Shown: positions 31,012 to 58,044 of the stretch, piece by piece
Layout: every line of letters starts with the position of its first letter
Numbering within the stretch: the stretch's first letter is position 1
From: Candidatus Aenigmatarchaeota archaeon
GTDB lineage: Archaea; Aenigmatarchaeota; Aenigmatarchaeia; CG10238-14; SCSR01
Assembly (NCBI GenBank): GCA_018304615.1
Contig: JAGVVV010000009.1
Span: forward strand, 45,160-109,159
Reading direction: 5' to 3'
DNA length: 64,000 bases
Notes under the pieces: generated by a model
Seen by the model: the letters and a program-made list of their open reading frames with translations, nothing else
Database searches by the model: none
Told to the model about the DNA's origin: nothing
Program-made: the position numbers and the translations under genes

Positions 31012-31129
31012 TGGGACAGGCGAGATTTGAACTCGCAACACCACGCTCTTCAGGCGTGTTCGAGCCAATTCATCATTGGTTGCTCTCCTTAACCTCATTA
31101 GAGCGACGATCGGGTTGAGCTACTGTCCC
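31012..31129 (-). tRNA. tRNA-Phe(GAA) with about 45 extra nt in the D-arm region (probably two non-canonical introns)
   Basis: GGGACAG-TA-GCTC...[62 nt where 17 are expected]...-CACGC-CTGAAGA-GCGTG-GTGTT-GCGAG-TTCAAAT-CTCGC-CTGTCCC-A; 118 nt; exact splice sites not resolved by hand. Confidence 0.7.
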
Positions 31130-37783: not shown

Positions 37784-37868
37784 GCCACGATAGCTCAAAG
37801 GCAGAGCAAAAATAGAGCTTAACTGCCCTGTAAGCAGTAGGTTGAGGGTTCAATTCCCTCTCGTGGCT
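37784..37868 (+). tRNA. tRNA-Thr(UGU) with about 13-nt non-canonical intron at the same site as tRNA-Thr(CGU); apparent C33
   Basis: GCCACGA-TA-GCTC-AAAGGCA-GAGC-A-A[AAATAGAGCTTAA]CTGC-CCTGTAA-GCAGT-AGGTT-GAGGG-TTCAATT-CCCTC-TCGTGGC-T. Confidence 0.7.
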
Positions 37869-42197: not shown

Positions 42198-42228
42198 TCT
42201 TTAATTGAACATAAGTGAATTTCAATTT

Positions 42229-43053
42229 ATGGATGTTGTAGAAAAAACTGTCCGTGACATTAAATCGATAAAAGTTCAAGGAGCTTATCACATTGCAATT
42301 GCAGCCGTCAAGGCGTACATGAAGGCTAAAGACAAGAAAAAGGCTGTGAAAAAACTCGTAGCTTCACGGCCGACTGAACCGATGCTAAGAAATTCACTGA
42401 TGTATGTGGAGAAAATGGGTGGTGGTAAAGAACTCCTAATGAAACTCGAAGAAGATTTAAAAAAAATTATTGAATACGGCTCTGAAAAAATAAAAGACGG
42501 GATGATTGTTTATACACACTGTCATTCTTCGATTGTAAATGACATTTTAATTCATGCAAAAAAATCTGGAAAGAAGTTTGAAGTTCATGTTACTGAGACA
42601 AGACCTTTTTTTCAAGGAAGATTAACTGCGAAACAATTGTCAGCTGCAAGAATTCCTGTAACTCTTTTTGTTGATTCTGCTGCAAGATTGGCCTTGAAGA
42701 AAGCAGATCTGATGATGATTGGCGCTGATGCGATAACAGCAGAAGGTTATGTCATAAACAAAATAGGAAGTGAGTTGGTTGCAGATGTTGCAAACAATTA
42801 TCAAATTCCAGTTTTCGTGTGCACTCATTCGTGGAAGTTTGATCCTAAGACAATTTTCGGTTTTGATGAGGAGATTGAAAGGAGGGAAGCAAAAGAAATT
42901 TGGAAGAATCCTCCGCGTGGAGTAAAGATTAGTAATTACGTTTTCGAGAAAGTTAATCCTGAAAAATTGACTGCGATAATTTCAGAGTTGGGAATTTTCA
43001 AGCCTGCTACATTTATAGTAGAAGTGAGAAAAAGTTACGGTTGGATGAATTAG
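42229..43053 (+). CDS. e2b2: ribose-1,5-bisphosphate isomerase (eIF-2B alpha/beta/delta family)
   Basis: ATG at 42229 preferred over the TTG at 42205; HCHSS, VTETRPFFQG, GADAITAEGYVINKIGS motifs; RuBisCO and AMP phosphorylase lie in the same window. Confidence 0.7.
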   Translation: MDVVEKTVRDIKSIKVQGAYHIAIAAVKAYMKAKDKKKAVKKLVASRPTEPMLRNSLMYVEKMGGGKELLMKLEEDLKKIIEYGSEKIKDGMIVYTHCHSSIVNDILIHAKKSGKKFEVHVTETRPFFQGRLTAKQLSAARIPVTLFVDSAARLALKKADLMMIGADAITAEGYVINKIGSELVADVANNYQIPVFVCTHSWKFDPKTIFGFDEEIERREAKEIWKNPPRGVKISNYVFEKVNPEKLTAIISELGIFKPATFIVEVRKSYGWMN

Positions 43054-45503
43054 CTTGGATTCACGTAGTAGGTGTTGACGAGTACATTGAAGTCTGGATT
43101 CCATACGAAAGTGATGACTCTTACTGACCCCCCTATATTCACGTCATAATTTGTGTAAGGTGAATTGCTCACCACCAACGACTGGCTTAGAATGTTTGCA
43201 TTTCCTAGTGGAACTATAAAGGTGAGAGACTGGTCTGCCGCTACACTGTATTGATAGGATGCCAGGGAAAACTGTTGGTTACCTGTGCTGGGACTGCATG
43301 AACCTAACCAAGGATCACAGTTCCAATTTGGTGGGCAGCCGCATTTGTTACAATAGTCAGTGAAAATTGAATGCCCGACATTAACACAATATTTAGGTGG
43401 TTTTCCAGATAAGCAAGATCCTACTTCAGCAACATCACTACCAGATTGGCATTTCGGAAGTTGGATTGGGGGCAGGGTCTGCTGGTTGATACTACAACAC
43501 ATTTTTCCCCCGGCAATTCCACTTTGTGGGCATAATCCTTGCAACGGGGATTCACCATTTAGGCAAACGGTTTTGCATACTGCATCTTTCAAACTGGAGC
43601 ACGGTGACAAACTAGGAGGCGTCGTAGTTGGTGTCGTGCCTGCGGGAACACAACAAGTTTTTCCTCCAGTTATCCCGCCTTGAGAACAACCGAGAGCACC
43701 CAAGTCCTGTTCGCCGTTCAAACAAACTGTCTTGCAATTTCCTCCTTTCGATGAACAGGTAGGTTGCGGAGGAGGTTTGGGCTTGCAAGTATTTGTTGTA
43801 GAATCACAACCGCCATCGCAATAAGTAGTTGACATAAAGCTAATATAACCGCACTGACCTTTTGGGCAATTGTCTCCGGCATTACCAAATACTTGGCATC
43901 CTTTGCCATAACTGTTAAGGAAATCTCCATCACATTTTTTGATGGTGGATGTATCTGCAAGACAATTCTCGTACCCGTTTAGTCGAGGGGAGCATTGCCC
44001 TTTAATCGGGTTACAGTACATATCAGATGGACAACTGCAAGTATTACAATCGTCTCTCAAATAAGGAGAGCCATATGGGTTTGAATAGCATCTTGCTGGT
44101 TTTGTTTTGGAACAAGTGCCGACTGAAGTTCCGTCAGAACAAGTTTGTTTTGATGGGGAAGTTGAAGTAGATGTTGTGGTTGTAGTAGTTGCTCCACATG
44201 CACTGAAACATGTGTTTTGATTCGTGTAACAATTACCCGTTAAAGCACAAAAGTAAGAACCGGAACTGCATTTGACACCACCGATTGCATTGCAGCCTTG
44301 TGGTGGAGCAACTGTTCTGCAGAAATTATCACAAAGAGTTGATTGAGGAATGCAGCAAGTTCTTTGACCTTCCTGAGGTTGAGTACAATCTACACCGCCT
44401 ACATCTGTTTCACCACTGGAGCAAACTGTTCTACAATTGCCACCTCGAGACGCACACTGTGCACCTTGGCCTGATGTAGTTGTTGTAGTGGTTGTAGGAA
44501 CGCAACAATTCTTTCCATCCGTAGGATTGCAATCATAACTTGATACGGGAGTAAATCCAGATGGGCATGTTGTCGTTCCCACACATTGTGCAGTTGGTCC
44601 CCCACCTCGACCGCATGATGGAAGACATTGTCCGTTTTTTACATTCCAGTCTGGATAGGGTTTATCAGATGGACATGTACCGGGTGTTGTAGTAGTCCCA
44701 CTACATCTGAAACAATTAGTTGAAACATATTGGCATGTACGACTATTTGCTTGACACTCTACATCACAATTCCTCCGATCTGTGAATTCACATTGGGGCT
44801 GGGTTGTAGTAGTCGTTGCATAACAGGGAAGATTGCCTGTATAAACACATTTTTCACCACAGCACCTGTAAGTTCCAGTACAAGTTGGTCCAGCACCTCC
44901 GACTTGTGTGTTGTCAGGACGACCTTTGCAAACATCAGCTGAAGGAGTTGAAGTGGTTGTAGGACTCACAAAACACTGTGAATTTGAAGAACAAGAACTT
45001 CCAGCTTTACCACCTGTACAAGCGTTCGTGCATCTTCCACTCTGGCATATACAAGTAGTCGAACTTATTCCACAAGCTGAAAGGCAAGTTGATGCACTAC
45101 CATAACATTGGTTAGTAGCAGCACAATAGTATTGACCGAAACCGCATGAAGCTCCGCCAGAACCTTTGCAATTTCCTGTGTAACCACAGTTAGGATTGCA
45201 TGTAGGAGCACTAGGAGGAACTGTAGTGCTAATACCACAATCACTCTTGCACCACGCCTGACTTCCTCCAGAATAACATCCGTTTGTTTTTCCACAATAA
45301 TAATAACCCCAACTGCAAATGACTCCACCACTTCCAGAACAACCTTGTGATTGTGCTGTGGTTGTACATGTCGGATCGCATGCAGGTCTTCCTCCTGTTC
45401 CTGTAGCAAATGTTTGTGGAGCAAAAATATTCTGGAACCATTGGAACAGATTAGCCTGACCCGTAGCTGGTTGAGTTTGCGAGGGGAATAAAACATTTTG
45501 CAA
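43050..45503 (-). CDS. 817-aa extracellular cysteine-rich mosaic protein (13 disulfide modules plus Cys-free C-terminal domain)
   Basis: Track start is a TTG; 92 Cys by my count, in modules of 6 or 8 separated by poly-Thr/Pro linkers; the frame stays open upstream to 45644 and encodes a signal-peptide-like segment without a canonical start. Confidence 0.7.
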   Translation of the reverse strand: MQNVLFPSQTQPATGQANLFQWFQNIFAPQTFATGTGGRPACDPTCTTTAQSQGCSGSGGVICSWGYYYCGKTNGCYSGGSQAWCKSDCGISTTVPPSAPTCNPNCGYTGNCKGSGGASCGFGQYYCAATNQCYGSASTCLSACGISSTTCICQSGRCTNACTGGKAGSSCSSNSQCFVSPTTTSTPSADVCKGRPDNTQVGGAGPTCTGTYRCCGEKCVYTGNLPCYATTTTTQPQCEFTDRRNCDVECQANSRTCQYVSTNCFRCSGTTTTPGTCPSDKPYPDWNVKNGQCLPSCGRGGGPTAQCVGTTTCPSGFTPVSSYDCNPTDGKNCCVPTTTTTTTSGQGAQCASRGGNCRTVCSSGETDVGGVDCTQPQEGQRTCCIPQSTLCDNFCRTVAPPQGCNAIGGVKCSSGSYFCALTGNCYTNQNTCFSACGATTTTTTSTSTSPSKQTCSDGTSVGTCSKTKPARCYSNPYGSPYLRDDCNTCSCPSDMYCNPIKGQCSPRLNGYENCLADTSTIKKCDGDFLNSYGKGCQVFGNAGDNCPKGQCGYISFMSTTYCDGGCDSTTNTCKPKPPPQPTCSSKGGNCKTVCLNGEQDLGALGCSQGGITGGKTCCVPAGTTPTTTPPSLSPCSSLKDAVCKTVCLNGESPLQGLCPQSGIAGGKMCCSINQQTLPPIQLPKCQSGSDVAEVGSCLSGKPPKYCVNVGHSIFTDYCNKCGCPPNWNCDPWLGSCSPSTGNQQFSLASYQYSVAADQSLTFIVPLGNANILSQSLVVSNSPYTNYDVNIGGSVRVITFVWNPDFNVLVNTYYVNPS

Positions 45504-45695
45504 TGCTCTAGATAAATCGTCAAGGGTATATCCAAAAACAGAAGCACTAAGAGCTAAGAGAGAAAAGGAAATAGCAAATAGGAGGATAAAAGTTCGGTTG
45601 GAGAATTTACTTTTACAATTCTTACTACCTGATCTAACAGACGTTCAAAATCCCCTAGAATAATATTCACTTTTTAAATATAATACTTCTTTCAC

Positions 45696-46511
45696 TTATA
45701 CCTGAACAGAATTTGAAGCTCTGATACTTGCGTCAGGCAAATCGCAGATGAGGCCTATGTAATATGTAGTTCCAGGGCTCAATCCTGTGAACGCGCATGT
45801 TCCTGAATAATCGGTGCTAGAGCAACTTTTCGCACCTGGAGAAGTTGCTACAACTCTGGATTGTCCGCTTGTCAGAGCGTTCGGGCATGACCAATTACAT
45901 GATATGCTGGTTCCATCGCTGCCCTTGTTGCATGAAACAGATGCAGAACCTCCACCGGTGCCTCCTGAACTACCTCCCGTACCTGTAGTCCCGCTGCATG
46001 GAGAATTGGAATTGAATCCATAGTATGTGAACCAATTCTCATCAGTCTTCAAGTTGCAGGTTCCCTGATCAGGGAATATCTGTTTTACTTTCTGATTAGC
46101 TTTAGTCACATCCTGATAACTTTGGTAGTATGCCGAGCACAATGTCTGCACGCAATCTTGTGGTATGAGTTTTCCGTTGTCAGTTACACATGGAAACATG
46201 TTCATGCAATAAATGGCATTCTCACACGCCTTGAAGCCTAGCAAACCTTCTGAATCGATAGAATCAATTCTACCATTCCTGTTCAGATCTGTATCACCTG
46301 TCAATTTTGTTGAACACCATTTGACGATGTTCCCTTCTTTGCAGAGCTGATCACAACCCTGCTTGAATTCCCCGTACTGGAGAGATTTTCTTACATCACT
46401 CAGACCTCCGAGTCCGCTTGTCTGATTCAAAAATAATCTGATGACGACGAAAGCTACTACAAGTAGTATCAAAAGCCCGATTATCATTTCAAGACTCATT
46501 TGTCCTTTCAT
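45696..46511 (-). CDS. type IV pilin-like protein with EF-hand-like Ca loop and FN3/Ig-like C-terminal domain
   Basis: 271 aa; MKG-QMSLEMIIGLLILLVVAFVV leader; DLNRNGRIDSID loop; G/S/T linker; FTGLSPGTTYYIGL. Confidence 0.6.
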   Translation of the reverse strand: MKGQMSLEMIIGLLILLVVAFVVIRLFLNQTSGLGGLSDVRKSLQYGEFKQGCDQLCKEGNIVKWCSTKLTGDTDLNRNGRIDSIDSEGLLGFKACENAIYCMNMFPCVTDNGKLIPQDCVQTLCSAYYQSYQDVTKANQKVKQIFPDQGTCNLKTDENWFTYYGFNSNSPCSGTTGTGGSSGGTGGGSASVSCNKGSDGTSISCNWSCPNALTSGQSRVVATSPGAKSCSSTDYSGTCAFTGLSPGTTYYIGLICDLPDASIRASNSVQV

Positions 46512-46518
46512 ATTCTCA

Positions 46519-47592
46519 CTAATCGATTGGTCTGCATTCTTGCCTTGTCACATCAAAGCTATCCCAGAAACTCCAAACAAGTGGCTGCAAGCCTTTTGAT
46601 GAAGGTATGTTAAACTTGTTATCGGTGAGTTTGAAGTTGACCAAGACTCCGCCTAGACTGCTTCCTGTTTGTGCGGAGACGATTTTTCCACCCAGCGAAT
46701 CAAAAACATTTGTCTTCAAACCAGAAGCTGAAGTTTTTTCATAGCAGAGATTGTCAGCAAATGTAGATTTCTGGCATGGAGTATTCAAACATGCAACAGG
46801 ATTTGCAGTGTCAAGACATTTTATTTCATAAGAGCATTTCACATACTGGGGATCCTCTTTGAATAATTCTTCATAGTGTTTGCATACATTCTGGATTGCA
46901 ACTTCAATCTTCTGCGGCATTGATGTAGGACTGGTGCATTGATCTCTTATGGAAGAGAATATCACTCTGACTGGAAGATTATTTTTTGTATCGTCATAAA
47001 GTCTGTAATATATCCACCAGAACCTGTTATTTGTGTTGTCAACCGCCAAATCACCTGAATAGGTTACAGAAGCAGGACTTGTAACTGTAATCACTCCACC
47101 TTGAGTCGCAGTTGATTTGAACGACTCGCATCCTTGAGAACTTCTCTGGTTGCACGCATCCTTGCCATAATCGTAGATTCCATTACATTGATATGGAGAG
47201 GCGGTAACACCGAGCTGCGCAATCTGGCTGTCTTTCAAACCTTTAAAGTATGTCTGCAAGTAGACATTGGATGTGTTACTCATGGAAAAATGAACTTCAT
47301 TTGATTCTGGAGGAACTGGCTCGTTGTTGCAATACCAAAATGTTCTAGATGCCTGACTTCCACCATTTGCTGCTACCTCAAGTGATGCGCTTTGAGTAGA
47401 GTAAGACAAATCCTGACTCAAGAATCTCTTCGCAGTTTCGAGTCTGGTAATTGCAATGTCTTTTGGTCCGACATTTGAAATTGTGCCGGCGAACTGAGTA
47501 CCGGATGAAAGATTGTTATAAGACCATACAGAGACCATCAAGACTCCAATCAGTGCAATGATTACGATTGTGGCATATGCGATGCCTTTCAT
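46519..47592 (-). CDS. type IV pilin-like protein, large ectodomain (hypothetical)
   Basis: 357 aa; MKG-IAYATIVIIALIGVLMVSVW leader; multiple Cys pairs. Confidence 0.55.
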   Translation of the reverse strand: MKGIAYATIVIIALIGVLMVSVWSYNNLSSGTQFAGTISNVGPKDIAITRLETAKRFLSQDLSYSTQSASLEVAANGGSQASRTFWYCNNEPVPPESNEVHFSMSNTSNVYLQTYFKGLKDSQIAQLGVTASPYQCNGIYDYGKDACNQRSSQGCESFKSTATQGGVITVTSPASVTYSGDLAVDNTNNRFWWIYYRLYDDTKNNLPVRVIFSSIRDQCTSPTSMPQKIEVAIQNVCKHYEELFKEDPQYVKCSYEIKCLDTANPVACLNTPCQKSTFADNLCYEKTSASGLKTNVFDSLGGKIVSAQTGSSLGGVLVNFKLTDNKFNIPSSKGLQPLVWSFWDSFDVTRQECRPID

Positions 47593-47629
47593 AAAATAAG
47601 TATGGTTCGAGGGGGGTATAAAAGTTTAC

Positions 47630-48910
47630 TTAGGCCCATTCATAGATATTTGCTGTGGTGTATACTCCTGCAACTGCGACTGGTACAGGAAAGTTGACAG
47701 CCCTGATGTTTTTTGTTCTCTGTGCAATTTCATATCCTGCTCTGTTCCCTGCTTCAAGAGCTCCAGTTCTTTCTGGAGTCACTTTCTCGATTACATCCTT
47801 AAGGGCGCTAGCCAGGTCGGATCCTTTGCTCAGATCGTACATCTGCCCTCCGGTTGCAGTCGCCATTTCTGTCATATATTGCGTGACAAGTCCGCTGCAC
47901 TGGCATTGTAATTGCGTAAAGTCATGATATGTTTGACCTTGCCAGATTACGCAGATGTTACATTTAGCGTCGCAGTTTGAACACGATGGGCAGCATCCAC
48001 TCCCTGGATCGGCCTTTATCGGAAATGCAAAAACTCCGTTCTTTTTAGCGACTTCGATTCCTCTGAGAAGGCTGTTGTGCTGTTCGACGTAGCTGCTCGG
48101 AGTGCTCGCACAACATCTTGGATTGCCTGTGTCAAGTCCGCATTCACTGCCTTCAGGAACTTCATCAGAAATTGGGATGACCACTCTCACGCTGAATTTC
48201 TGCCAGCCTTCAATAGGACCTGCTTCAATTGCGCATGCAGTTCCATGTCCCCAATCTTCGGAAGGATCTCCTCGCCTCTTGTCTTCGCATTGAAGTCCTC
48301 CAATGTTAGAACATCTCAGATACTGAGATTGAGGGAACTTGTCGCAAGAGATGACATAAGGTTGGCTGGGATTAGAACCTATTCCGCAACAAGGACTGCC
48401 GCCTTCGAGCAAATAAATCGTTGCAGTCACTCTTTTGCCTGCAGCTCTAAGGTCACTTATCAAACCGGGCAAAACTTTTCTGAGATTCTCAACGTCATCA
48501 CACAAACTTGAGGAAGTGTCTTGAATGAAAATAATTTGGATTGCAGCTTCAATCTTCGGATAGGGAACTCTCATATACCAGTGGTCTTTCCCATAAAGAG
48601 CATCAAGTCTCCAAGTGATTTCCTGAGGAACATCCACGTAACTGATTGAAGGTCCGAAATCTATCGTGTCATTTCCGATGTATGCAGCGATCCCTACCAA
48701 CTCTTGTAGAGATTTTCCACTCTTTGATTCTGTCATTGAAAAAAGTGCGTTAGCGCCAGCACTCACTCCTTCCCTCTCGTGTCTTTCAGCTAGGGTGAGA
48801 ATGGTTTTTCCAAAACTTCCTATGCTTGTAGTCCTCAAAAGAATAATCACTGCGATTATTGCTATAGCAAGCATGACAAAACCCATGACCTCAAATATTT
48901 GCCCTTTCAT
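47630..48910 (-). CDS. type IV pilin-like protein with von Willebrand factor A domain
   Basis: 426 aa; MKG-QIFEVMGFVMLAIAIIAVIILL leader; MIDAS IIFIQDTSSSL (DxSxS) and VVIPISDEVPEG; Cys-rich insertions. Confidence 0.6.
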   Translation of the reverse strand: MKGQIFEVMGFVMLAIAIIAVIILLRTTSIGSFGKTILTLAERHEREGVSAGANALFSMTESKSGKSLQELVGIAAYIGNDTIDFGPSISYVDVPQEITWRLDALYGKDHWYMRVPYPKIEAAIQIIFIQDTSSSLCDDVENLRKVLPGLISDLRAAGKRVTATIYLLEGGSPCCGIGSNPSQPYVISCDKFPQSQYLRCSNIGGLQCEDKRRGDPSEDWGHGTACAIEAGPIEGWQKFSVRVVIPISDEVPEGSECGLDTGNPRCCASTPSSYVEQHNSLLRGIEVAKKNGVFAFPIKADPGSGCCPSCSNCDAKCNICVIWQGQTYHDFTQLQCQCSGLVTQYMTEMATATGGQMYDLSKGSDLASALKDVIEKVTPERTGALEAGNRAGYEIAQRTKNIRAVNFPVPVAVAGVYTTANIYEWA

Positions 48911-49659
48911 TTTACCACAAGACTCCCCTGCAAATAACTTATCGTCCAGACATAATCACCTGGTGCTTTGATGTCCTTGATAGCAAGAGGGCAAGACATG
49001 ACTCTGCACGATTTTTGTTTAGTTCCGCTGCAGAGCTCGTTTGTAGATTTGTAATAGCTGAGTGGGAAACTTGTGTGTATGCCAAATGATGTGGCATTCA
49101 GTCTCCCGTTTCTAAACAAGTCGCACGACCAGTCAAGAGCGCCTGCTATGTTCTCCAACTCTCCGTTGACAAGATAAATGTAAATGTTGCCTGGAATGAC
49201 ATCCTTGTCAGAATATCTGATTGCAATTGGCATAGAGGTGTTGATATCATTCTTGAAAGCAGGACCTGTTGAAAAATTCTTGGCACCGAAAGACCAAATC
49301 TTAGATGGAGTCTGTGGATCCTGATTAATCTCGACGACAGTCGCCCTCCATCCGAAATTATAATTTCTCGCACAAGGAGGTTCGATATTTTTGAAATCGG
49401 AGGCCATCTGTTTCAATTTTGTCACGTCGACGATGTTGGCATAGAGTCCATCAGTCGCAGGAGATCTGTAAGCAAGGCAATCTTCCGAATTTGCAAGAAT
49501 GAGAAGGATGTTCGTGGAAGTGCTGATCAGGTTCAGAGTTTTTGAAGCCTGCCTCTCCTTTGCGATGGATTCAGAAATCGAGCTATACAAAAACAAGAGC
49601 AATGCTATTGTCATCACCAAAGAAATCGGTTTCAAAATGTAAGACATCTGGCCTTTCAT
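48907..49659 (-). CDS. type IV pilin-like protein (hypothetical)
   Basis: 250 aa; MKG-QMSYILKPISLVMTIALLLFLY leader; ATGA overlap with the downstream gene. Confidence 0.55.
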   Translation of the reverse strand: MKGQMSYILKPISLVMTIALLLFLYSSISESIAKERQASKTLNLISTSTNILLILANSEDCLAYRSPATDGLYANIVDVTKLKQMASDFKNIEPPCARNYNFGWRATVVEINQDPQTPSKIWSFGAKNFSTGPAFKNDINTSMPIAIRYSDKDVIPGNIYIYLVNGELENIAGALDWSCDLFRNGRLNATSFGIHTSFPLSYYKSTNELCSGTKQKSCRVMSCPLAIKDIKAPGDYVWTISYLQGSLVVK

Positions 49660-51648
49660 TCAAGCACCTGGTATGATACATTTGAAACCTTGAGGCACGC
49701 CTGCCAATGCGCACAGTTCGTCAATATGGCAATCTACATTCGTCTGCTTGCATCTAGAGTTTGAAGGATTCCAATTTCCGCCGCACCTCACACCTGGTGG
49801 AACTGCGTAACCACTTTTTCCGTCAGAACTTATTCCATCGTTTAGAGCGTACAATCCCTTGTCATTCCACCAAATGCACATGACATCACAGTCTGTTTGA
49901 TCTAGGAAAGTCACAAATTGGCCTGTTGCATCAAGTCTCAACCATCTGTTGGCGTTTCCATTGCATTCATTCGGCCACAATCCGGGTTGGTTTTGCAAAT
50001 CGGGATCACATTTCATTACTACGAATGCATGCCTTCTACAATCTCCGGCAATGTCAAAAGTTGTGTAAGCGTCCTTTGCAGGAACACCGAGAGTCCTTAG
50101 GACTGACAACACTGCAGAGGCATGGTCTGCACAGTAACCAACTCCGCAGCATTCGCTTCCGATATAAGTTGCTCTGTCGTCAGGACATTCTGACAAACAG
50201 CAACAAGTGTAATCCTCTCTTTTGTAGTTCTCGTTTGCGGATATCGTGAAACCAGCAGGCTGAAGTCTTTGGCAGGCTCTGATGTATCTACTCGCATCGA
50301 AAGCCCAGCCTTCAGGTGTGCGAGCCCTTATTGTTTTTATTACTTCGTTGATATCCCAATTTCTTCTGTCCAAGAATTTCTTAACTTCTGAGTCGCAGAT
50401 GGAGATTGTTCCAGGCTGCCAGCTTGGCTTGTCTCCTGTTCTGGTACCTCCTTGGAAAACATCTTCATAGCAAGCGGATGAAGTGAAAGGTCCGCCTGTC
50501 TGGCATGATGGTTGTGTTGCTTGACCGCAATCCTGAGGACAAGTGTAATTTGTCTCCCATTTTGTCTTGTATCCTTCAGGCCACCCGTATTGTGTGCCGG
50601 GTCTCCACTCGCACCTCCCATTACCACAGCAGTCTTTCCTGCAAATATTATCGCCAGGGCATGCCACAAGTCCAGCACAGCAAGGGTCTGATCCTGTTTG
50701 ATTTTCTTTTGTACAAACATTCTGGCATGCACGTGAATCTGGACAGTCAGGGTCGCAGATGTTTTTTGAATCTTTACAATCCAAGTCGCAGATACCGTCT
50801 TTTAATAAAGTTATTTTAGAAGGAGTGGAAATTGTAGGAGTTGAGGCTGTTGTGTTTATACAACCTGTGTAACATTTTCCGTCTTGTACTTTGTATTTGA
50901 CTCCATCTTTATCTATTATTTTACTCTTGGCAGGGCAGTCTGGATCGCAGTAACCTGTTTTGCTATTGGGATATTGGTCGTAACAATCTAAATCACAAAC
51001 TCCTTTTTTCAATCCTTCGCAATCAGGACTGCAAATGCCATCTCTTTCATTTTCTTTAATGCAATTCTTCTCGCACACACCTGTCTGGTATCCTCTATAG
51101 CAATTTTTGTCACAGATGCCTGGATTTTCTTTTGCGCAGAATGGGTTGCATACGCCAGTGGAGTTGTCATTCACACATTTTGTATCACACTTATTTTCCA
51201 CATTGCATTCGGGATCGCAAATGTTATCATTGGTATTGCAGGAACATGTCTTGTTGCTGATATAGACGCTGTTGTCATTGACGGTCTTGACTATGCAGAG
51301 CGACTTGGGATTTTCAAATGAATAGGGACCGGATTTAATGAGGCTTGAAAAGAATGTTCTGACTGAATTCTTGTCGCCGTATTTTATTATGAGTGCTTTC
51401 TGATCGATGTCTAATCTGAATCTGAGACCTTTTGGAATGTCTATTTGCATTTGAATATTTCCTGCTGTTGCTGCAGCCCTATCTATAGAAGTTGAAACGT
51501 CTCTACCGAGAGCCTCGAAAACAGATTCGTAAGTTCGCTGGTTCTGTTGAGAGAAGACAAGTTGAACTACAAGGACGATGAGAATGAAAGAGATGAGAAT
51601 GGCTGTAGTCTCCAACATTGTCTCGGACAGTATTACAGACCCTTTCAC
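49660..51648 (-). CDS. type IV pilin-like leader fused to G-(I/V)-C-D-x-x-C repeat array and transglutaminase-like cysteine protease core
   Basis: 662 aa; GTG start with GAGGT 6 nt upstream; MKG-SVILSETMLETTAILISFILIVLVV; about 12 repeats (GVCNPFC, GICDKNC, GVCEKNC, GICSPDC, GVCDLDC, GYCDPDC, GICDLDC, NICDPDC...); C-terminal GYCADHASAVLSVLRTLGVPA ... RRHAFVVM ... WLRLDATG (Cys-His-Asp). Confidence 0.65.
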   Translation of the reverse strand: MKGSVILSETMLETTAILISFILIVLVVQLVFSQQNQRTYESVFEALGRDVSTSIDRAAATAGNIQMQIDIPKGLRFRLDIDQKALIIKYGDKNSVRTFFSSLIKSGPYSFENPKSLCIVKTVNDNSVYISNKTCSCNTNDNICDPECNVENKCDTKCVNDNSTGVCNPFCAKENPGICDKNCYRGYQTGVCEKNCIKENERDGICSPDCEGLKKGVCDLDCYDQYPNSKTGYCDPDCPAKSKIIDKDGVKYKVQDGKCYTGCINTTASTPTISTPSKITLLKDGICDLDCKDSKNICDPDCPDSRACQNVCTKENQTGSDPCCAGLVACPGDNICRKDCCGNGRCEWRPGTQYGWPEGYKTKWETNYTCPQDCGQATQPSCQTGGPFTSSACYEDVFQGGTRTGDKPSWQPGTISICDSEVKKFLDRRNWDINEVIKTIRARTPEGWAFDASRYIRACQRLQPAGFTISANENYKREDYTCCCLSECPDDRATYIGSECCGVGYCADHASAVLSVLRTLGVPAKDAYTTFDIAGDCRRHAFVVMKCDPDLQNQPGLWPNECNGNANRWLRLDATGQFVTFLDQTDCDVMCIWWNDKGLYALNDGISSDGKSGYAVPPGVRCGGNWNPSNSRCKQTNVDCHIDELCALAGVPQGFKCIIPGA

Positions 51649-51695
51649 AGCACGACCTCTTAGATAATTTTGATTGTGGTATATAATATTGGTGC

Positions 51696-52256
51696 CTATT
51701 GAGAAGTTGTAGTAGTCGTTATCTTTTCTCCGATAGAACGTTTTGCAGTTATGTCAACGAAACTGAAATCTGTCTTGTTTATAAGAACTTCATATTTGAA
51801 GACTGGCGAACCTTCTGATAGTCTCGCAATAAGTGAGGCAAGATCGGATTTTTGAGATGGGGTTCCGAAGTAAGTCATATTCACACTGCAAGAGAGAGGT
51901 TCACATCGAGGTATGTTTTCCTCAGCGAATTTAATGCAAAAGAATTTTCCAATGGCCATTGAACCAGAAGAGATGAGCACAGAAACTTTTGCTGGCGGTG
52001 GTTCGTCGCTTACATTCGAAATGTAAATAGCTGTCACTGATTCTGGCAGTGCGATCTTGTATCTGTAGATTTCTCCGACTCCTCCTTTGAAGCAGACGTT
52101 TTTGACTTTGAAATAAATGTCGGCGAAGTTCTCAATAGCTATTTCTTTCTGAGTAGAGCTGAGCTGGTCTAGAACAAGTTTGGATCCAAAAACTATTACA
52201 ATAATGGCAAGTACGACACTCATCACGATCCAAATCCATGCAGCTACACCCTTCAT
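51696..52256 (-). CDS. type IV pilin-like protein (candidate structural pilin; paralogue of the N-half of 56315-57466)
   Basis: 186 aa; MKG-VAAWIWIVMSVVLAIIVIVFG leader; KVKNVCFKGGVG...ALPESVTAIY...GKFFCIKF parallels TVNALCEGRPG...VFPDSVSIVY...GKFACLKF. Confidence 0.55.
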   Translation of the reverse strand: MKGVAAWIWIVMSVVLAIIVIVFGSKLVLDQLSSTQKEIAIENFADIYFKVKNVCFKGGVGEIYRYKIALPESVTAIYISNVSDEPPPAKVSVLISSGSMAIGKFFCIKFAEENIPRCEPLSCSVNMTYFGTPSQKSDLASLIARLSEGSPVFKYEVLINKTDFSFVDITAKRSIGEKITTTTTSQ

Positions 52257-52294
52257 ATGTATAATTTTGTTGCAGATTGTTATAACTTTAGAAT

Positions 52295-52756
52295 CTAAGG
52301 TTCAGGCGTGCCGACGAAAATGGCCCTTTCATACCCATCATAAGAAATCGTGAAGTTCTTATCACTAGTAATATACCACTTGACTTTGTCCTGATTTGGA
52401 TACCTCTTCGAAACACAGGAACTACAATCTCCAGATGTGCAATTGTTATTAGGAATGTTCTCGCAGTTTAGAGATTTGGTGACGTCAAATTCTGTAATCG
52501 TTGAATTAGAAATTATGTTAATGTTCTTGCAAACAGAAGATTTGGGGCTGAGACCATTTCTGTTTTGATCCCAACATGTCACTATGTAATTAGCAATAGT
52601 AGACGCGATTTTCTGTTTGTCTCCAGAAAGATTCACCTCAGAAGAATTTTTGAATCCACCGGTGAGTTGGAAGACTAGGAGTAAGAGAATCAATGCGACT
52701 GCTATTCCGGCAATAATCTGAAAAAATTCGGGGATTGTTTCGAGTATGCCTTTCAT
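52295..52756 (-). CDS. small type IV pilin-like protein, CW-motif family
   Basis: 153 aa; MKG-ILETIPEFFQIIAGIAVALILLLLVF; IANYIVTCWDQ; C-terminal ISYDGYERAIFVG. Confidence 0.55.
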   Translation of the reverse strand: MKGILETIPEFFQIIAGIAVALILLLLVFQLTGGFKNSSEVNLSGDKQKIASTIANYIVTCWDQNRNGLSPKSSVCKNINIISNSTITEFDVTKSLNCENIPNNNCTSGDCSSCVSKRYPNQDKVKWYITSDKNFTISYDGYERAIFVGTPEP

Positions 52757-52757
52757 C

Positions 52758-53309
52758 TCAAGACCATTTCTGTTTTAGATTTTCATATTGATGGGAATTT
52801 TTGCGCCTCAGCAAAAGAAAGACCAAAAGAATAACTGCGACAATCAAAATAGCTAGATAAATGTAGATTGAATAAGATGATGATGTCTGAATAGGTTTTG
52901 ATACGCCAGGTAAATCTTTTGAGAAAATTATTTTTGACTCGTGTAATAACTGCAATTTTGTCGCGCCTTCAGGTGCCGGAAGTCTGAAAACCAAATTCTT
53001 GCTGGTATCATTAAATTCAACGGGTTTTCCTGAAGTGGATATCCCATGACCACTGAAACCTATTAGAAATTCTTTCTCGAATAATACTGAATTGGAGTCT
53101 GATACCAGTCTTATCTTATATCCAGTTCCTAACAAGTTCTCTACGTTCGGAGTTCCTTGGGCTTCTCTAAGTTCATTCAGTTGAACTGAATCGTTCTTGT
53201 AAACGACGATGTCTAGAAGGAATATTTTCCCATAATCTTGGGCTGAGATAATCTGAAAAGAAATGAGAATGAAGATTATGAAAACACTTAATTTTTTCAT
53301 TGTCCACAA
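52758..53309 (-). CDS. type I membrane protein (Sec signal plus C-terminal TM), hypothetical
   Basis: 183 aa; MKKLSVFIIFILISFQIISAQD signal; C-terminal IYIYLAILIVAVILLVFLLLRRKN anchor. Confidence 0.5.
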   Translation of the reverse strand: MWTMKKLSVFIIFILISFQIISAQDYGKIFLLDIVVYKNDSVQLNELREAQGTPNVENLLGTGYKIRLVSDSNSVLFEKEFLIGFSGHGISTSGKPVEFNDTSKNLVFRLPAPEGATKLQLLHESKIIFSKDLPGVSKPIQTSSSYSIYIYLAILIVAVILLVFLLLRRKNSHQYENLKQKWS

Positions 53310-55261
53310 CCATCCATATAATCTTTTAGTTCATGCTCTTTTAACCATTTGTAGCTTCCGGCAGAATATTTTGTTTGTGCACCATAGCACATCATCCAGC
53401 CATCCTGATAACTTCCTGTGCATGCCCCTACGTTTGGATTCGGACAGTAACTGTCTTGCCCCACTCCCCTACATGCACATCCAATCATTGCGCAATAGTT
53501 TGGATTAGAAAGTGGAGAAGGATCACATTCATGACACAAGTTCTGAGAATGACCGATCTCGTGCAAAACAGTATTTGTATAGCTCGCCCAAGTGACGCTC
53601 TGGTCTGAAGGGATGTCTCTGGCTGCACCTATACACATACCACCGCTGCCGTCACATGATATCGGACCACGCTGGAAAAGACCGACGACCTTATTGTAAA
53701 CAGTTGCATATTTGCTTTTTTTGGCACAAGCTAAGACATTGTCATTGCAAAGGGGCCAAAGATAAGGACACGAAACACTACATTCGCCTGGTTCGACGAA
53801 CACTGCTTCTACTCTGCTCTGCGGATTTCGACATTCACTCAACGGACTGAGTTTAATAAATAAGTCGACGACTTTTTGAGCACTGGCTTTGAAGGATGCT
53901 GCCTGACCAGAGCTGTAATCTATAGGAACAAATAGTAATTTGTAAGTTTTTCTAAAGAAGCAATCCGTCCCGTTCCAGATTTTTCCTTCGGGACAACAAT
54001 GGCCTGAAGTGTCGCATTGAAGATTCGTCGCACATTGGCTGTTGCAGTTACATTTGCTCTTCTCTTTCAAATCTTTATTGACAGTACATCCGAGTGAGTC
54101 AGCTTTTCCATCACTTGGGCAGCAGACAAAATTGAAATCGCTGCAAGTTGTTCCTGCTCCAAGGCAATCTTTACTGCAAGACTGGCAGTTTTCACTGGCA
54201 GTTGTATTGCAGATTCCATTCCCACAACATTCAGTTCTTGGACCCTGAGCTCCTGATGGGCAATCTGGATCATTGTCGAATACGGTACAGGAAGGCGAAC
54301 ACCAGCTGTTGCAAGTCTTATCACAAACGAAACATTTCGAATCGGTGGTTCCGTTGGGATTTCCAGGATAAACAATTCCGTTGCAGTCAGGATCGCAGAT
54401 ATTTTTATCTTTTATACAATCCTGATCGCAAATTCCGTCTTTCACGCCGTTTGAATTTGGGTCACAAATACCTCCATACTTCTGCCTGAAAGTCTGGTCA
54501 GTCAACTTCAACCATTCGCAACCGGGGTCATAGGCTTTCAAAGGATTCAATCTATCTGAATAACAATCTGGATTGCATTTTCCATCAGAAATTCTTTTAT
54601 TGGAATCATCTATGTCAACCACTCCATTGTTGTTCGAATCTATGCAAGCAAGATTGCAAGGAATTCCATGGCGCTGGCCATCGTCACACACAGGATCGCA
54701 TACTCTCTTCAAAATGCAACTTGCATCACAGATGTTGTCTGTCGGATCGCAACCCTTGATGGCTCTGGCTATGAAAGTGTCTGGAGAAGGAGATCCCTGC
54801 TGCCACATGTCTACGAAATCAAAAGTTTTTAGGGGATAGTCACCTTGGTTTCCTATAATGATCAGTGCTCCCACACCGAGAGGCTTGGTCAGATTGTAAA
54901 AAATTAAATTTCCTCCGCCTGCGATACCTGAGAGTTTACTTATCCTGATTATGTCTTCTTGGGTCAACGAGAATGTGAGAGAAACATTTGCGTGAACGTC
55001 TCCGCACTGACCTTGATAGACAGCCTGAAGAAGTGTCTGGAAGTCTTGTATTGAAATTTCCTTACCAGCATATGCCTCGCAAATGTTGTAAGGGGATGTT
55101 TGAATGACAGTACTTACAAATTTCTTGAACACATTTCCAAGTTGAGTTGGAATCTGTGAGCCCAGAGTTAATCCTTGAGATTGTATGATGAGAATTGAAA
55201 CGATGATGATTACAAGAAACAGGGCTATAATTCCAATCAAGTTAATTGTATCAGCATCCAC
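53297..55261 (-). CDS. signal-anchored cysteine-rich protein with G-I-C-D-x-x-C repeats, EF-hand-like loop and metzincin-spaced zinc protease motif
   Basis: 654 aa; GTG start overlapping the upstream TAG by 1 nt; MDADTINLIGIIALFLVIIIVSILII; DSNNNGVVDIDD; GICDPNS/GICDQDC/NICDPDC; VLHEIGHSQNLCH (HExxHxxxxxH). Confidence 0.6.
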   Translation of the reverse strand: MDADTINLIGIIALFLVIIIVSILIIQSQGLTLGSQIPTQLGNVFKKFVSTVIQTSPYNICEAYAGKEISIQDFQTLLQAVYQGQCGDVHANVSLTFSLTQEDIIRISKLSGIAGGGNLIFYNLTKPLGVGALIIIGNQGDYPLKTFDFVDMWQQGSPSPDTFIARAIKGCDPTDNICDASCILKRVCDPVCDDGQRHGIPCNLACIDSNNNGVVDIDDSNKRISDGKCNPDCYSDRLNPLKAYDPGCEWLKLTDQTFRQKYGGICDPNSNGVKDGICDQDCIKDKNICDPDCNGIVYPGNPNGTTDSKCFVCDKTCNSWCSPSCTVFDNDPDCPSGAQGPRTECCGNGICNTTASENCQSCSKDCLGAGTTCSDFNFVCCPSDGKADSLGCTVNKDLKEKSKCNCNSQCATNLQCDTSGHCCPEGKIWNGTDCFFRKTYKLLFVPIDYSSGQAASFKASAQKVVDLFIKLSPLSECRNPQSRVEAVFVEPGECSVSCPYLWPLCNDNVLACAKKSKYATVYNKVVGLFQRGPISCDGSGGMCIGAARDIPSDQSVTWASYTNTVLHEIGHSQNLCHECDPSPLSNPNYCAMIGCACRGVGQDSYCPNPNVGACTGSYQDGWMMCYGAQTKYSAGSYKWLKEHELKDYMDGCGQ

Positions 55262-55821
55262 TAGACGGCCACCTCGATTCTATGAAAGAAAGAATTGTAA
55301 TTTATGAAAACCGAAGTATCGTTTAAATTCACTCTTCCACCTGTCCAATAGATTTTATTTTGTTTTCCGCAATCATAGGCTTGATTCTCCAAATCAAGCA
55401 AGTTGTTCTCAAGGAATGAGCAGTAACCTTTTGATTTGAGGACATCCGTTATTTCTTTCTCTCCGAACTCAGAAGGAACATTTTTAATCAGAATCTCGTA
55501 GCACTGAAAAGATATTCCTACTTTCCCACTGTTGGTTTTTTCCTTCCAGCACGTCCACACATAATCCGCAATCTTAACTCTCAAGTCTGAGCTTGAAGTA
55601 GGCCTTAAGATGACATTTTCTTTTGTAGGAGTGATGTTGCATTGAGATACAGAAGGTTTCAAAGATTGGGGTAGAGGGATTACAAGAATTATTTGATAGA
55701 GTTTGCAGATGGCTGGACCTGTGTAGTTGGGAAGAAACATGTTCATCGCGGTTAAGATTATCCAAACTCCCACTAGTGCAATCAAAACATCTGCGACGAG
55801 CTTGAATGACATTCCTTTCAT
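55261..55821 (-). CDS. small type IV pilin-like protein, CW-motif family
   Basis: 186 aa; MKG-MSFKLVADVLIALVGVWIILTA; IADYVWTCWKE; C-terminal INYNSFFHRIEVAV. Confidence 0.55.
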   Translation of the reverse strand: MKGMSFKLVADVLIALVGVWIILTAMNMFLPNYTGPAICKLYQIILVIPLPQSLKPSVSQCNITPTKENVILRPTSSSDLRVKIADYVWTCWKEKTNSGKVGISFQCYEILIKNVPSEFGEKEITDVLKSKGYCSFLENNLLDLENQAYDCGKQNKIYWTGGRVNLNDTSVFINYNSFFHRIEVAV

Positions 55822-56276
55822 GGAGAGCTCACTATTATTTGGGGACCTAACTCTTTGAATTCTATCTTGACTATTTGGCTGTTGAAGTTTGCGGTTATCG
55901 AAGTTCTTTTCTTCACATCAGAAGGTAGGCTGCTCAGTATTGTGTTAGCATCTGCACTGAAGTATGGAGGTTTTCTGGCTAGCAACAAGTAACAAACCGT
56001 ATCCTTCTGATCTGGAACTGGAAGATTTGAGTTGCAGCTGTCACAGCTTTGAATATACGCGGAGATTTCAGAAGATATGAATGAATCCTTCTCAATCGGT
56101 TTCTTATCTGGACAATTGGCCTCACTTGGGCAATTGAAGAACTTGCAAAGGAATTTGTTTATCGAAGTCTGGATGTCCCTGGAGAAATTCAAAATCAAAC
56201 CTATAATGACTGCAACGGTTACAAGTAGAATGATTATTCTGAAAACAAACTCCAGCGCGAGAGCTGCTCCCTTCAT
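55818..56276 (-). CDS. small type IV pilin-like protein (related to the CW-motif family)
   Basis: 152 aa; MKG-AALALEFVFRIIILLVTVAVIIGLIL; ISAYIQSCDSC; C-terminal VKIEFKELGPQIIVSS. Confidence 0.55.
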   Translation of the reverse strand: MKGAALALEFVFRIIILLVTVAVIIGLILNFSRDIQTSINKFLCKFFNCPSEANCPDKKPIEKDSFISSEISAYIQSCDSCNSNLPVPDQKDTVCYLLLARKPPYFSADANTILSSLPSDVKKRTSITANFNSQIVKIEFKELGPQIIVSSP

Positions 56277-56314
56277 AATTTAACTAAGGATTTCTTATAA
56301 TAAATTAGAATAAC

Positions 56315-57466
56315 ATGAAAGGTATCGCTGTCTGGATATGGCTCATAGGCGGGATAATTGTCGGAATGATCATGTTTGTTCTTTTTTTCCAGTTGATGAG
56401 CTACCTGACACTTAGCAGGGCAAGGGAGGATGCAAGACAGAGTTTTGATGATTTAACCAGCACTGTCAATGCTCTGTGCGAGGGTAGACCTGGTATTCAG
56501 TCCTCGAAGAAGTTTGTCTTTCCAGATTCTGTATCAATAGTTTATTCAACTTCAGATCCGAAGACGTATGTAGAGAAAAATAATCGTACTTATGGAAAGT
56601 TTGCTTGCCTTAAATTCCAAAAGGAGCAATTTTGCGAAGGAGTGAGTTGTGATTTAGAGTTTCACCCAATAAAGGCGGAGGAAAACCTTTTAGGAGTAGT
56701 AGACACCTTGTTAGGAAGATCAAGCTACCAAGAATATCTGGTGAAGTTGACCAAGACAGAATGTGGGGTGTCTGCTTTGAACGTTGGAGAAAACCCATCT
56801 TCAACATGTGGGCTATGTAAAACTGTATCTTTAATCAGATGCCAGACGTCAGTTATCTTGGGGCTTGTAAGTAGAGACGTCCTTGTCATAACAGACATGT
56901 CAAGACTGAAAGAATGTTGCACTATAGATAACAGTATAATCAAGTTACTCAATAATGCGGCAGGTTATCTTGGTGGAAAAAAGATTTTGATAGTTTGGGA
57001 ACTTAACCAGTATGATCCTTCCTCTCAATCTAAATTGCCTATAATAAATTCATTGAGCAGTTCTGGATTCATGGTCGGTTTCCTGAGGCACACAACTCAA
57101 TTGACCGATGACATTTTGAAAAATTACGATCAGCTCTGGCTTTTCCGACCAGGCTGGTGCCTCCCTCAAATAGTTGAATGTGGTGGGTCAGTAACTTGGA
57201 GCAATTCAGAAATAAATGCAATTGGAAACTTTCAAAATCGTGGAGGAAAGATTTTCTTGTTTACTGACACTTCTGCTGGAAATGTCCAAGACCAAGACAT
57301 GGTGAACAAGATACTAAAACAGCTGAACACGACTGCGACTGTCGATGGAACAACTGTGTGCGGACGCGGAGATCAAACCGTCATGACAACAGATATTACA
57401 AAGAACTCTGTAACTAAGGGTTTGGACAACTTTAACGTCACTGCTGCGACGAGAATAATTTGTTAG
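56315..57466 (+). CDS. type IV pilin-like protein with extra C-terminal alpha/beta domain; only plus-strand gene in the locus
   Basis: 383 aa; MKG-IAVWIWLIGGIIVGMIMFVLFF; N-half paralogous to 51696-52256; C-half KKILIVWELNQYD...YDQLWLFRPGW...GGKIFLFTDT (weak ThuA/GATase1-like impression). Confidence 0.55.
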   Translation: MKGIAVWIWLIGGIIVGMIMFVLFFQLMSYLTLSRAREDARQSFDDLTSTVNALCEGRPGIQSSKKFVFPDSVSIVYSTSDPKTYVEKNNRTYGKFACLKFQKEQFCEGVSCDLEFHPIKAEENLLGVVDTLLGRSSYQEYLVKLTKTECGVSALNVGENPSSTCGLCKTVSLIRCQTSVILGLVSRDVLVITDMSRLKECCTIDNSIIKLLNNAAGYLGGKKILIVWELNQYDPSSQSKLPIINSLSSSGFMVGFLRHTTQLTDDILKNYDQLWLFRPGWCLPQIVECGGSVTWSNSEINAIGNFQNRGGKIFLFTDTSAGNVQDQDMVNKILKQLNTTATVDGTTVCGRGDQTVMTTDITKNSVTKGLDNFNVTAATRIIC

Positions 57467-58044
57467 GCAATTATCACAATCTTGTTTTGTACAGTATCGT
57501 ACTTAATCAAAATCAGCCGCTGATCGTTTATTACATTTCCTGAAACTTGCCAGACTATGTTGTCACTCCCTCCGCAGTTCCCAGAATAGTCGGAGAGTTG
57601 TCCAGTTGCATTGATAATCTTGGAATTTTCAAGGACGTCGCAGCCATTTTCTCTTTCAATGATCTGTGTCATGTATGACTCTGTAACAGGTCCGAATGAA
57701 TCCTCTACAAACAGGTTGTAGCAGACAGTAGAATTAGTAACCTTAATTCTTTGGCCCTGCCAACATGAAATTGCAAAAGCAGCAATCAATCTTGCAAACT
57801 CTTCTTTGTTCTCTGCTGATTTGTCGCATCCCTGTCTGCAGATGGAAATTGATGTAACAGGCTTGTTAAGTCCTTTACATAAATCTGAAGTTTGCTTCAA
57901 TGTGTTCTCATAAAAGTAGCAGAAAGTCTTTTTCATTGTATCTGAGAACGGACCGACTAAGAACATTAGTAAGACGATGATTCCGACAATACCTACAGTG
58001 AGGTATCCGATTGTGTTTAATTCCAGACCTTTATGTCCCAACAT
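57463..58044 (-). CDS. small type IV pilin-like protein, CW-motif family
   Basis: 193 aa; MLGHKG-LELNTIGYLTVGIVGIIVLLMFLV; IAAFAISCWQG; C-terminal IKYDTVQNKIVIIA; overlaps the platform gene by 14 nt. Confidence 0.55.
   Translation of the reverse strand: MLGHKGLELNTIGYLTVGIVGIIVLLMFLVGPFSDTMKKTFCYFYENTLKQTSDLCKGLNKPVTSISICRQGCDKSAENKEEFARLIAAFAISCWQGQRIKVTNSTVCYNLFVEDSFGPVTESYMTQIIERENGCDVLENSKIINATGQLSDYSGNCGGSDNIVWQVSGNVINDQRLILIKYDTVQNKIVIIA

Follow-up and report, generated by a model that had tools for sequence, protein, structure and literature searches.

What does an archaeon do with a protein in which more than one residue in ten is a cysteine, and why does one set of its repeated modules resemble the beta-defensins of animals? 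The protein is encoded on the minus strand at 43050..45503 of a 64,000-nucleotide stretch (positions 45,160 to 109,159 of contig JAGVVV010000009.1, assembly GCA_018304615.1, hereafter the window) from Candidatus Aenigmatarchaeota archaeon. A sequence-only reading had described it as a mosaic of disulfide modules, one type with a beta-defensin-like framework, and had proposed a glycosylated surface fibre or toxin-like array expressed at the 3' end of a pilin operon. The explanation favoured here, to which we give about even chances, is a non-pilin, disulfide-stabilised modular protein, exported by the general secretory (Sec) pathway, that would serve the type-IV-like pilus encoded just upstream as its adhesin or its means of recognising a host. 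The protein belongs to a new and very rare family within a known kind, the adhesin-like proteins of pilus loci. Its unusual features are modules with a predicted trans-defensin fold in an archaeon, complete avoidance of N-glycosylation sequons and a non-canonical codon at the start position.

Translation of the open reading frame (ORF) gives 817 residues with 92 cysteines (11.3%), 12.4% threonine, 11.9% glycine, 10.8% serine and a single histidine, while the cysteine share of cytoplasmic ORFs in the window is 0-1%. The cysteines are split into 13 blocks of 8, 8, 6, 6, 6, 8, 6, 8, 8, 8, 6, 6 and 8, so that the counts of the sequence-only reading are exact. Linkers rich in threonine, serine and proline lie between blocks at residues 180-189, 229-237, 268-276, 336-349, 437-451 and 620-631, numbered here and in Table 1 from the start of the 817-residue ORF. 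Module pairs were compared by Smith-Waterman score against shuffles in which the cysteines were kept fixed, and the z-scores are 9.6 for B2/B3, 8.4 for B1/B2, 6.9 for both A1/A3 and A1/A2, 6.4 for C1/C2, 5.1 for A2/A3 and 3.9 for B1/B3. The families A (three copies), B (three) and C (two), as first proposed, are therefore alike beyond their cysteine frameworks. Within the window, these modules are confined to this one ORF. The cysteine-free C-terminal domain is 81 residues long (737-817) rather than the roughly 100 first estimated; its AlphaFold model has four or five strands at a predicted local distance difference test (pLDDT) score of 65-78 and gives weak Foldseek matches to Ig-like and usher domains. 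A C-terminal membrane anchor is absent from the protein.

Known families account for little of this architecture. The whole protein matches no Pfam or NCBIfam family at E<=0.1, so that neither database recognises an enzyme domain in it, and has no match among Protein Data Bank (PDB) sequences at E<=10. No module matches the EGF, granulin or knottin families of Pfam at E<=0.1, and one relative of module C matches EGF_2 at E 0.33. Modules A, C and M6 give only chance-level matches to PDB profiles and Pfam (enterovirus 2A protease, an antibody complementarity-determining region, WDR5), and these comparisons gave nothing in favour of a hevein-like module A. An AlphaFold model of the C-terminal 372 residues has a mean pLDDT of 62.8, and Foldseek gave nothing for it below E 0.19.

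The 817-residue frame is most likely incomplete at its 5' end. The 141 nucleotides (nt) preceding its TTG start at 45503 (45504..45644) are in frame and encode SVRSGSKNCKSKFSNRTFILLFAISFSLLALSASVFG, a Sec-type signal peptide, followed by a conserved mature N-terminus that begins YTLDDLSRA. The signal is tripartite, with a V-F-G/A-x-A-like cleavage site and then a hydrophilic conserved segment; the [KR]G-type cleavage motif directly before a hydrophobic helix that marks a prepilin, or class III, signal is absent from this N-terminus. The orthologues P0002, P0003 and P0004 align over exactly the signal peptide and mature N-terminus, all begin with methionine, and their gene starts are ATG. Because the upstream 141 nt align with these N-termini, the start is placed at 45644 instead of 45503; the gene most likely spans 43050..45644, the shorter boundary being an artefact of ORF calling. 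Secretion through the signal peptide is likewise suggested by the alignment of the mature N-terminus with that of the ATG-start orthologues. The cysteine-free segment that follows the signal contains two amphipathic stretches, judged by eye, and is a candidate docking or oligomerisation element.

Where the orthologues have their ATG, the window has ACG (45644..45642); an in-frame TGA immediately precedes it (the two codons occupy 45642..45647), and no ATG, GTG or TTG lies in frame between the TGA and the TTG at 45503. Because of this ACG, ORF callers begin at the TTG and lose the signal peptide; the NCBI annotation carries the same shortened 817-residue product as a hypothetical protein (MBS3055352.1, P0001). 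The gene and 600 nt upstream are identical in three independent assemblies from different samples (L006, L007 and L008), so that the ACG is a real genotype and sequencing error is ruled out. Recoding of TGA, which might have explained the upstream stop, is also ruled out, since TGA terminates 14 ordinary ORFs of the window. As read from the sequence, the ACG is preceded at a distance of 7 nt by a Shine-Dalgarno-like AGGGGA and, about 25-35 nt upstream, by an AT-rich TATA-like box. In an uncultured archaeon, the ACG is an example on which non-canonical initiation, or silencing specific to the strain, could be tested.

The resemblance of module B to beta-defensins had been proposed from the cysteine pattern, and it extends beyond that pattern. 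The spacings of the three copies are 6-3-11-9-0, 6-3-11-10-0 and 7-3-10-10-0, exactly within the C-x6/7-C-x3-C-x10/11-C-x9/10-CC first read, and a variant in P0004 has 6-4-10-5-0. As single modules, B1 (18.4 bits, E 0.003) and B2 (19.1 bits, E 0.0017) match the Pfam family PF13841 (Defensin_beta_2) over profile positions 1-23 of 30, both below its gathering threshold of 22.2 bits, which no module of the window reaches. B3 has no match to a Pfam beta-defensin family. Among B-family sequences, 6 of 11 match PF13841 at E<=1 (best 3.8e-4). None of 10 shuffles with the cysteines fixed matches PF13841, and no other module type matches a beta-defensin family of Pfam. A B-family profile searched against 177,635 PDB sequences has the crocodile beta-defensin CpoBD13 as its sole match, at a non-significant E of 3.9. 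Alignment with hhalign to a non-curated beta-defensin alignment, which gives a lead only, places the six cysteines in register over 33 columns but at no more than P = 0.024; the register hints at the same disulfide pairing (C1-C5, C2-C4, C3-C6).

Structure prediction points in the same direction. The AlphaFold2 model of B2, built from an 11-sequence alignment, has a pLDDT of 80.7 and a predicted template modelling score of 0.55, with a helix at residues 3-6 and strands at 9-11, 18-20 and 36-40, although the cysteine pattern itself may bias AlphaFold. The independent 372-residue run shows the same secondary-structure pattern at lower confidence. Foldseek gives 23 PDB matches for the B2 model, and the first 18 include 16 trans-defensins (CpoBD13, hBD-2, gallin, hBD-4, mBD-7/8, alpha-defensins and big defensins), with template modelling (TM) scores of 0.38-0.61 and root-mean-square deviations of 1.6-3.5 A. 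The best of them reach TM 0.5-0.61 with deviations of 1.6-3.3 A over 30-40 columns, but all E-values exceed 0.5 because the domain is so short. For B, a beta-defensin-like fold is thus the prediction best supported at present; the likeness is no more likely to stem from common descent than from convergence.

Compared with beta-defensins (PF00711, PF13841; hBD-2 1FD3, CpoBD13 7T9Q, gallin 2MJK), module B shares the cysteine order C..C..C..C..CC, a G-x-C before the second cysteine, a hydrophobic-G-x-C before the fourth and a G or K before the terminal CC, together with a predicted N-terminal helical turn and three-stranded sheet. The last two loops differ, with 10-11 and 9-10 residues in B against 9 and 6 in the beta-defensin pattern C-x6-C-x4-C-x9-C-x6-CC. 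Beta-defensins are small, processed, strongly cationic peptides, whereas B is a repeated domain of an archaeal protein, near neutral (net charges -1, +1 and +1) and internal to a chain of 817/864 residues. In the literature searched, trans-defensins are placed only in animals and the defensins of bacteria are all of the cis type (PMC11561630), and no paper tying trans-defensins to archaea was found. If the fold of B is confirmed, the trans-defensin architecture would not be restricted to animals and would be either much older than thought or reinvented, which bears on the long-standing question of defensin origin.

Cysteine counts argue for disulfides rather than free thiols. The number is even in all 13 modules, and the totals of the four long family proteins (92, 124, 112 and 82) are all even. 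Cysteines are also gained and lost in pairs: the fourth and seventh of module C are lost together in P0011, and eight-cysteine and six-cysteine M6-like repeats differ by one extra pair. From this paired gain and loss we infer that the modules are disulfide-bonded. A single superfamily of the M6-like repeats and B was also considered and is rejected on an hhalign probability of 3.8% over only 13 columns.

The family also avoids N-glycosylation sites. The window protein has no N-X-S/T sequon where shuffles predict 11.2, and P0003, P0004 and P0020 have none where 13.5, 10.5 and 7.1 are expected, giving 0 against about 42 for the four proteins. Serine or threonine stands at +2 from asparagine in only 5 cases against 45 expected, and all five have proline at +1, which blocks N-glycosylation. 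In the same proteins the reverse order, [ST]-x-N, is present 30 times. Because the surface-layer (S-layer) protein encoded in the window has 13 sequons against 9.1 expected and the pilin-like neighbours are likewise not depleted, N-glycosylation is avoided specifically in the cysteine-rich family. The glycosylation proposed by the sequence-only reading is thus contradicted for N-glycans throughout the family, while O-glycosylation of the threonine linkers is possible. We know of no description of such a total, directional absence of sequons in a secreted family rich in serine, threonine and asparagine. The absence is a clean selection signal that could help find other proteins that must stay glycan-free. 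Elsewhere in the window, genes for a PMT_2-family (GT-C) glycosyltransferase at 6664..8013 (+) and a GT2 glycosyltransferase at 8010..9245 (+) adjoin that of the 780-residue S-layer protein (S_layer_C) at 10611..12953 (-), which makes this a possible protein-glycosylation neighbourhood. The PMT_2 gene is 35 kb from the cysteine-rich gene.

Relatives are few. HMMER over 1.84 billion representative proteins finds 19, a search of 185,579 GTDB species genomes finds none with a relative, and a word-indexed homologue search with the full protein returns only itself and one fragment, while two module alignments matched nothing. No description of the protein was found in the literature searched. The new family comprises P0001, P0002/P0020, P0003, P0004, P0005 and P0006. 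Its members share a signal peptide with an N-terminal segment of the form [YLA]T[LVI][DE]D[LI], a variable middle of cysteine modules and a C-terminus in the order C1-M10-B-C2-beta domain, and they lie between a pilin-like cluster and a convergent IF-2B-family gene. Both termini are kept among orthologues, while in the reshuffled middle modules are gained, lost or replaced; M3 and M4 are common to the window protein and P0002/P0020. The P0005 orthologue (L005 1..2344) has only 418 residues and is preceded by two short ORFs of 72 and 78 residues; the copy may be decaying or broken into fragments, or the repetitive 5' half may have been misassembled.

Single module types recur outside the family. 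The pilin-like P0022 has one B module as its C-terminus, and its gene lies just downstream of a type II secretion system E (T2SS-E) ATPase gene and a 649-residue, possibly platform, gene. Tandem C modules are carried by P0017 (Ca. Parcubacteria) and P0012, both of which have a pilin-type N-terminus; C is also present on the membrane-anchored P0009 and beside a LamG domain in P0019 (bacterium). M6-like repeats are found in tandem in bacterial-type proteins, among them P0010, from a Deltaproteobacteria metagenome-assembled genome, which has a sub-threshold GH43 match. The presence of C and M6, neither of which is in Pfam, in this archaeal protein and in bacterial ones, including those of the candidate phyla radiation, suggests inter-domain exchange of small disulfide adhesion modules.

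The gene neighbourhood suggests a link to a pilus. At least 11 ORFs in the upstream cluster start with MKG (or VKG or MLGHKG) followed by a hydrophobic helix, an unusually large prepilin-like set; one such gene, 56315..57466, is on the plus strand. From 43050 to 58044 the ORFs are mostly 2-11% cysteine, and 52758..53309 has none. The cysteine-rich gene is the last same-strand gene of the cluster, as the sequence-only reading had placed it, and this position is conserved: in L002 (P0003) and L003 (P0004) the order is pilin-like genes, cysteine-rich gene, convergent IF-2B, PCMT, membrane protein, UPP synthase and geranylgeranyl reductase. For L001 and L005, conservation is confined to, or visible only on, the downstream side with IF-2B and PCMT. 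In the window, the IF-2B-family gene (42205..43053, +) and the cysteine-rich gene are convergent, their 3' ends overlapping by 4 nt.

The cluster also includes two other large cysteine-rich proteins, a 662-residue transglutaminase-like and a 654-residue reprolysin-like one. The genes 49660..51648 (-) and 53297..55261 (-) encode hydrophobic pilin-like N-termini and 57 and 56 cysteines; one product has a sub-threshold match to the transglutaminase core (E 4e-4) and the other to a reprolysin-like metallopeptidase (E 7e-4). Neither product has a cysteine-rich region related to modules A, B or C, and both could be enzymes that are displayed together with the pilus or on it.

The adhesin explanation joins these observations as follows. 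After removal of the signal peptide, the 13 modules would fold independently, each with three or four disulfides, and the linkers rich in threonine and proline would space them into an extended, beads-on-a-string stalk. The conserved ends, namely the cysteine-free N-terminal segment and the C1-M10-B-C2-beta domain block, would attach to the pilus, the cell envelope or each other, and the reshuffled middle would offer lineage-specific binding surfaces in the form of beta-defensin-fold B, aromatic-rich A, C and M6. Sequons would have been eliminated, presumably to keep the tightly packed modules glycan-free. The pilus link is drawn because the gene comes last on its strand after some 13 class-III-signal genes and a T2SS-F-like gene, because L002 and L003 keep this order, and because B and C modules are also carried by pilin-like proteins. 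The evolution is adhesin-like because the termini are kept while the module content of the middle is gained, lost and swapped. A more specific version, held tentatively and with the balance somewhat against it, takes B to be a genuine trans-defensin-type domain with C1-C5, C2-C4, C3-C6 pairing, the first outside animals and in Archaea, serving as a binding bead, neutral and free of glycans, on a fibre with which a DPANN symbiont, in association with the pilus, would attach to its host and whose function would require the family-wide removal of every sequon.

Comparable proteins are on record. A large protein with a signal peptide and many conserved cysteines is a common product of type IV pilus loci in archaea, where it is taken for an adhesin or a minor pilin (Makarova, Koonin and Albers 2016, PMC4858521; 2026 preprint, bioRxiv 10.64898/2026.04.22.720090). 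The proteins of these type IV filament (TFF) loci are likewise large, secreted and set amid class-III-signal genes and a platform gene, and TFF loci resemble the window in encoding cysteine-rich products and a transglutaminase-like protein in the same locus. In contrast, the described TFF adhesins are mostly rich in Ig folds, PilY-like or S-layer-like, whereas the window protein is a string of 27-60-residue disulfide modules without a Pfam or arCOG-type match and with 19 detectable relatives. The PilY1/PilC tip adhesins of bacterial type IV pili offer a functional analogy only, as large Sec-exported non-pilins encoded at the end of a minor-pilin cluster; the beta-propeller and vWA domain of PilY1 were not found in the cysteine-rich protein with Pfam, NCBIfam or PDB sequences (E<=10). 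Eukaryote-style mosaics such as EGF, granulin and knottin arrays are alike in their tandem, shuffled disulfide domains and linkers rich in threonine and proline, and the typical ones differ in that the window family lacks any N-glycosylation sequon. DPANN archaea, to which the source of the window belongs, live attached to other cells, and to our knowledge the molecules that make this contact are largely unknown. The locus offers a concrete candidate in a conserved protein of disulfide beads that is quickly reshuffled and is linked to a pilus gene cluster.

Several observations weigh against a working pilus adhesin. Neither a pilus ATPase nor a prepilin peptidase was identified in the window; the TATA-like box lies in the spacer before the cysteine-rich gene, which may therefore be transcribed on its own; the signal is Sec-type instead of class III, so that the protein cannot enter the filament as a pilin; extracellular disulfide formation is an assumption for a habitat that is probably anoxic; and, with ACG in place of the canonical start, this strain may produce little or none of the protein. 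Taken further, the last point becomes an account of its own, in which the gene is decaying or silent here after an ATG to ACG change and any product made from the TTG at 45503 lacks a signal peptide and is not exportable. The preceding in-frame TGA, the want of another ATG, GTG or TTG before 45503 and the ATG of the orthologues all fit such an account. It is nonetheless quite unlikely, given that the 2.6-kb frame is intact, all 92 cysteines and the signal-peptide coding region are kept, three assemblies from separate samples carry one and the same sequence, a Shine-Dalgarno-like motif lies upstream of the ACG, and non-AUG initiation is possible. An extracellular metal-binding or redox protein, with cysteine thiolates in place of disulfides, is invited by the very high cysteine content and the presumably anoxic habitat; the even and paired cysteines, the single histidine in 817 residues and the absence of CxxC/CxxCH-type cofactor motifs recognised by Pfam or NCBIfam make it extremely improbable.

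The remaining alternatives accept a folded, exported protein and assign it another task. It could be a self-assembling fibre or envelope component independent of the pilus, in which the N-terminal segment binds the C-terminal beta domain of the next subunit through a donor strand or coiled coil, or else an S-layer-associated stalk. Only the two termini are both conserved and cysteine-free, the C-terminal domain is small, built of beta strands and weakly matched by Ig-like and usher domains, and Sec-secreted archaeal 'threads' are reported to polymerise via donor-strand complementation (PMC9715654). However, comparison with Pfam, NCBIfam and PDB sequences revealed no kinship with thread subunits or S-layer proteins, the N-terminal segment looks amphipathic-helical by eye and not strand-like, the window already encodes a separate S-layer protein, and the conserved position in the pilin cluster would be left unexplained, so that this is judged unlikely. 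Very unlikely, in turn, is a defensin-like antimicrobial or toxin array whose modules, especially B, are membrane-active or channel-blocking and are displayed or released against host or competitors. DPANN archaea need access to host cells, and the sub-threshold beta-defensin matches and predicted trans-defensin fold of B speak for such a role; yet the net charge of B contrasts with that of strongly cationic beta-defensins, the linkers, rich in threonine, proline and serine, show neither dibasic nor other recurring sites for processing, no likeness to toxins is seen in most modules (A, C, M6 and M10), and the fusion of B to the pilin-like P0022 suggests display rather than release. The toxin-like character proposed by the sequence-only reading accordingly fares poorly, and the pilus-linked adhesin is preferred.

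Table 1. Features of the cysteine-rich gene and the upstream cluster, in window coordinates (aa, amino acids, numbered from the 817-aa ORF start).
Feature	Position	Strand	Remarks
Probable true 5' end and Sec-type signal peptide (SVRSGSKNCKSKFSNRTFILLFAISFSLLALSASVFG)	45531..45644	-	In-frame translation; alignment of orthologue N-termini
Conserved cysteine-free mature N-terminal segment (YTLDDLSRALQNVLFPSQTQPATGQANLFQWFQNIFAPQ...)	45381..45530	-	Conserved in P0002, P0003, P0004
A1, aa 42-90, 8 Cys, spacing 3-8-7-6-5-8-3, aromatic-rich	45234..45380	-	
A2, aa 102-145, 8 Cys	45069..45200	-	
M3 (aa 151-177), M4 (aa 192-227), M5 (aa 238-267), unique 6-Cys modules with Thr-rich linkers between	44703..45053	-	
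M6, aa 277-336, 8 Cys, family CDPxxQPxPxWGxKNGQCLxSCGxxGG...YDxxxCC	44496..44675	-	Tandem repeats in bacterial-type proteins
B1, aa 350-386, 6 Cys, spacing 6-3-11-9-0, beta-defensin-like	44346..44456	-	
A3, aa 391-437, 8 Cys	44193..44333	-	
C1, aa 455-506, 8 Cys, family CSDGT...KP..C...C..CxCP...C...GxC	43986..44141	-	AlphaFold pLDDT 80-85
M10, aa 514-573, 8 Cys	43785..43964	-	Kept in all orthologues
B2, aa 583-620, beta-defensin-like	43644..43757	-	The modelled B module
B3, aa 635-672, beta-defensin-like	43488..43601	-	Kept in all orthologues
C2, aa 685-738, 8 Cys	43290..43451	-	AlphaFold pLDDT 76-79
Cysteine-free all-beta C-terminal domain, aa 739-817	43053..43289	-	Conserved in P0003, P0004, P0006
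Upstream cluster of about 13 genes, most with MKG and a hydrophobic segment (class III/prepilin-like) and 2-9% Cys	45696..58044	-	
720-aa polytopic T2SS-F/TadC-like platform protein	58031..60193	-	Weak Pfam T2SSF match; NCBI 'type II secretion system F family protein'

Genes of the AMP/nucleotide-salvage RuBisCO pathway lie on both sides of the pilus cluster, at 42205..43053 (+), 60248..61537 (+) and 61853..63394 (+), and encode an IF-2B-family (ribose-1,5-bisphosphate isomerase-like) protein, a form III RuBisCO and an AMP phosphorylase. The window also carries an archaeal signal recognition particle RNA. ARAGORN found three of the six tRNAs of Rfam, and the tRNA matches at 15700..15785, 16127..16219, 31012..31129 and 37784..37868 are 85-118 nt long, above 75 nt, which is consistent with archaeal tRNA introns.

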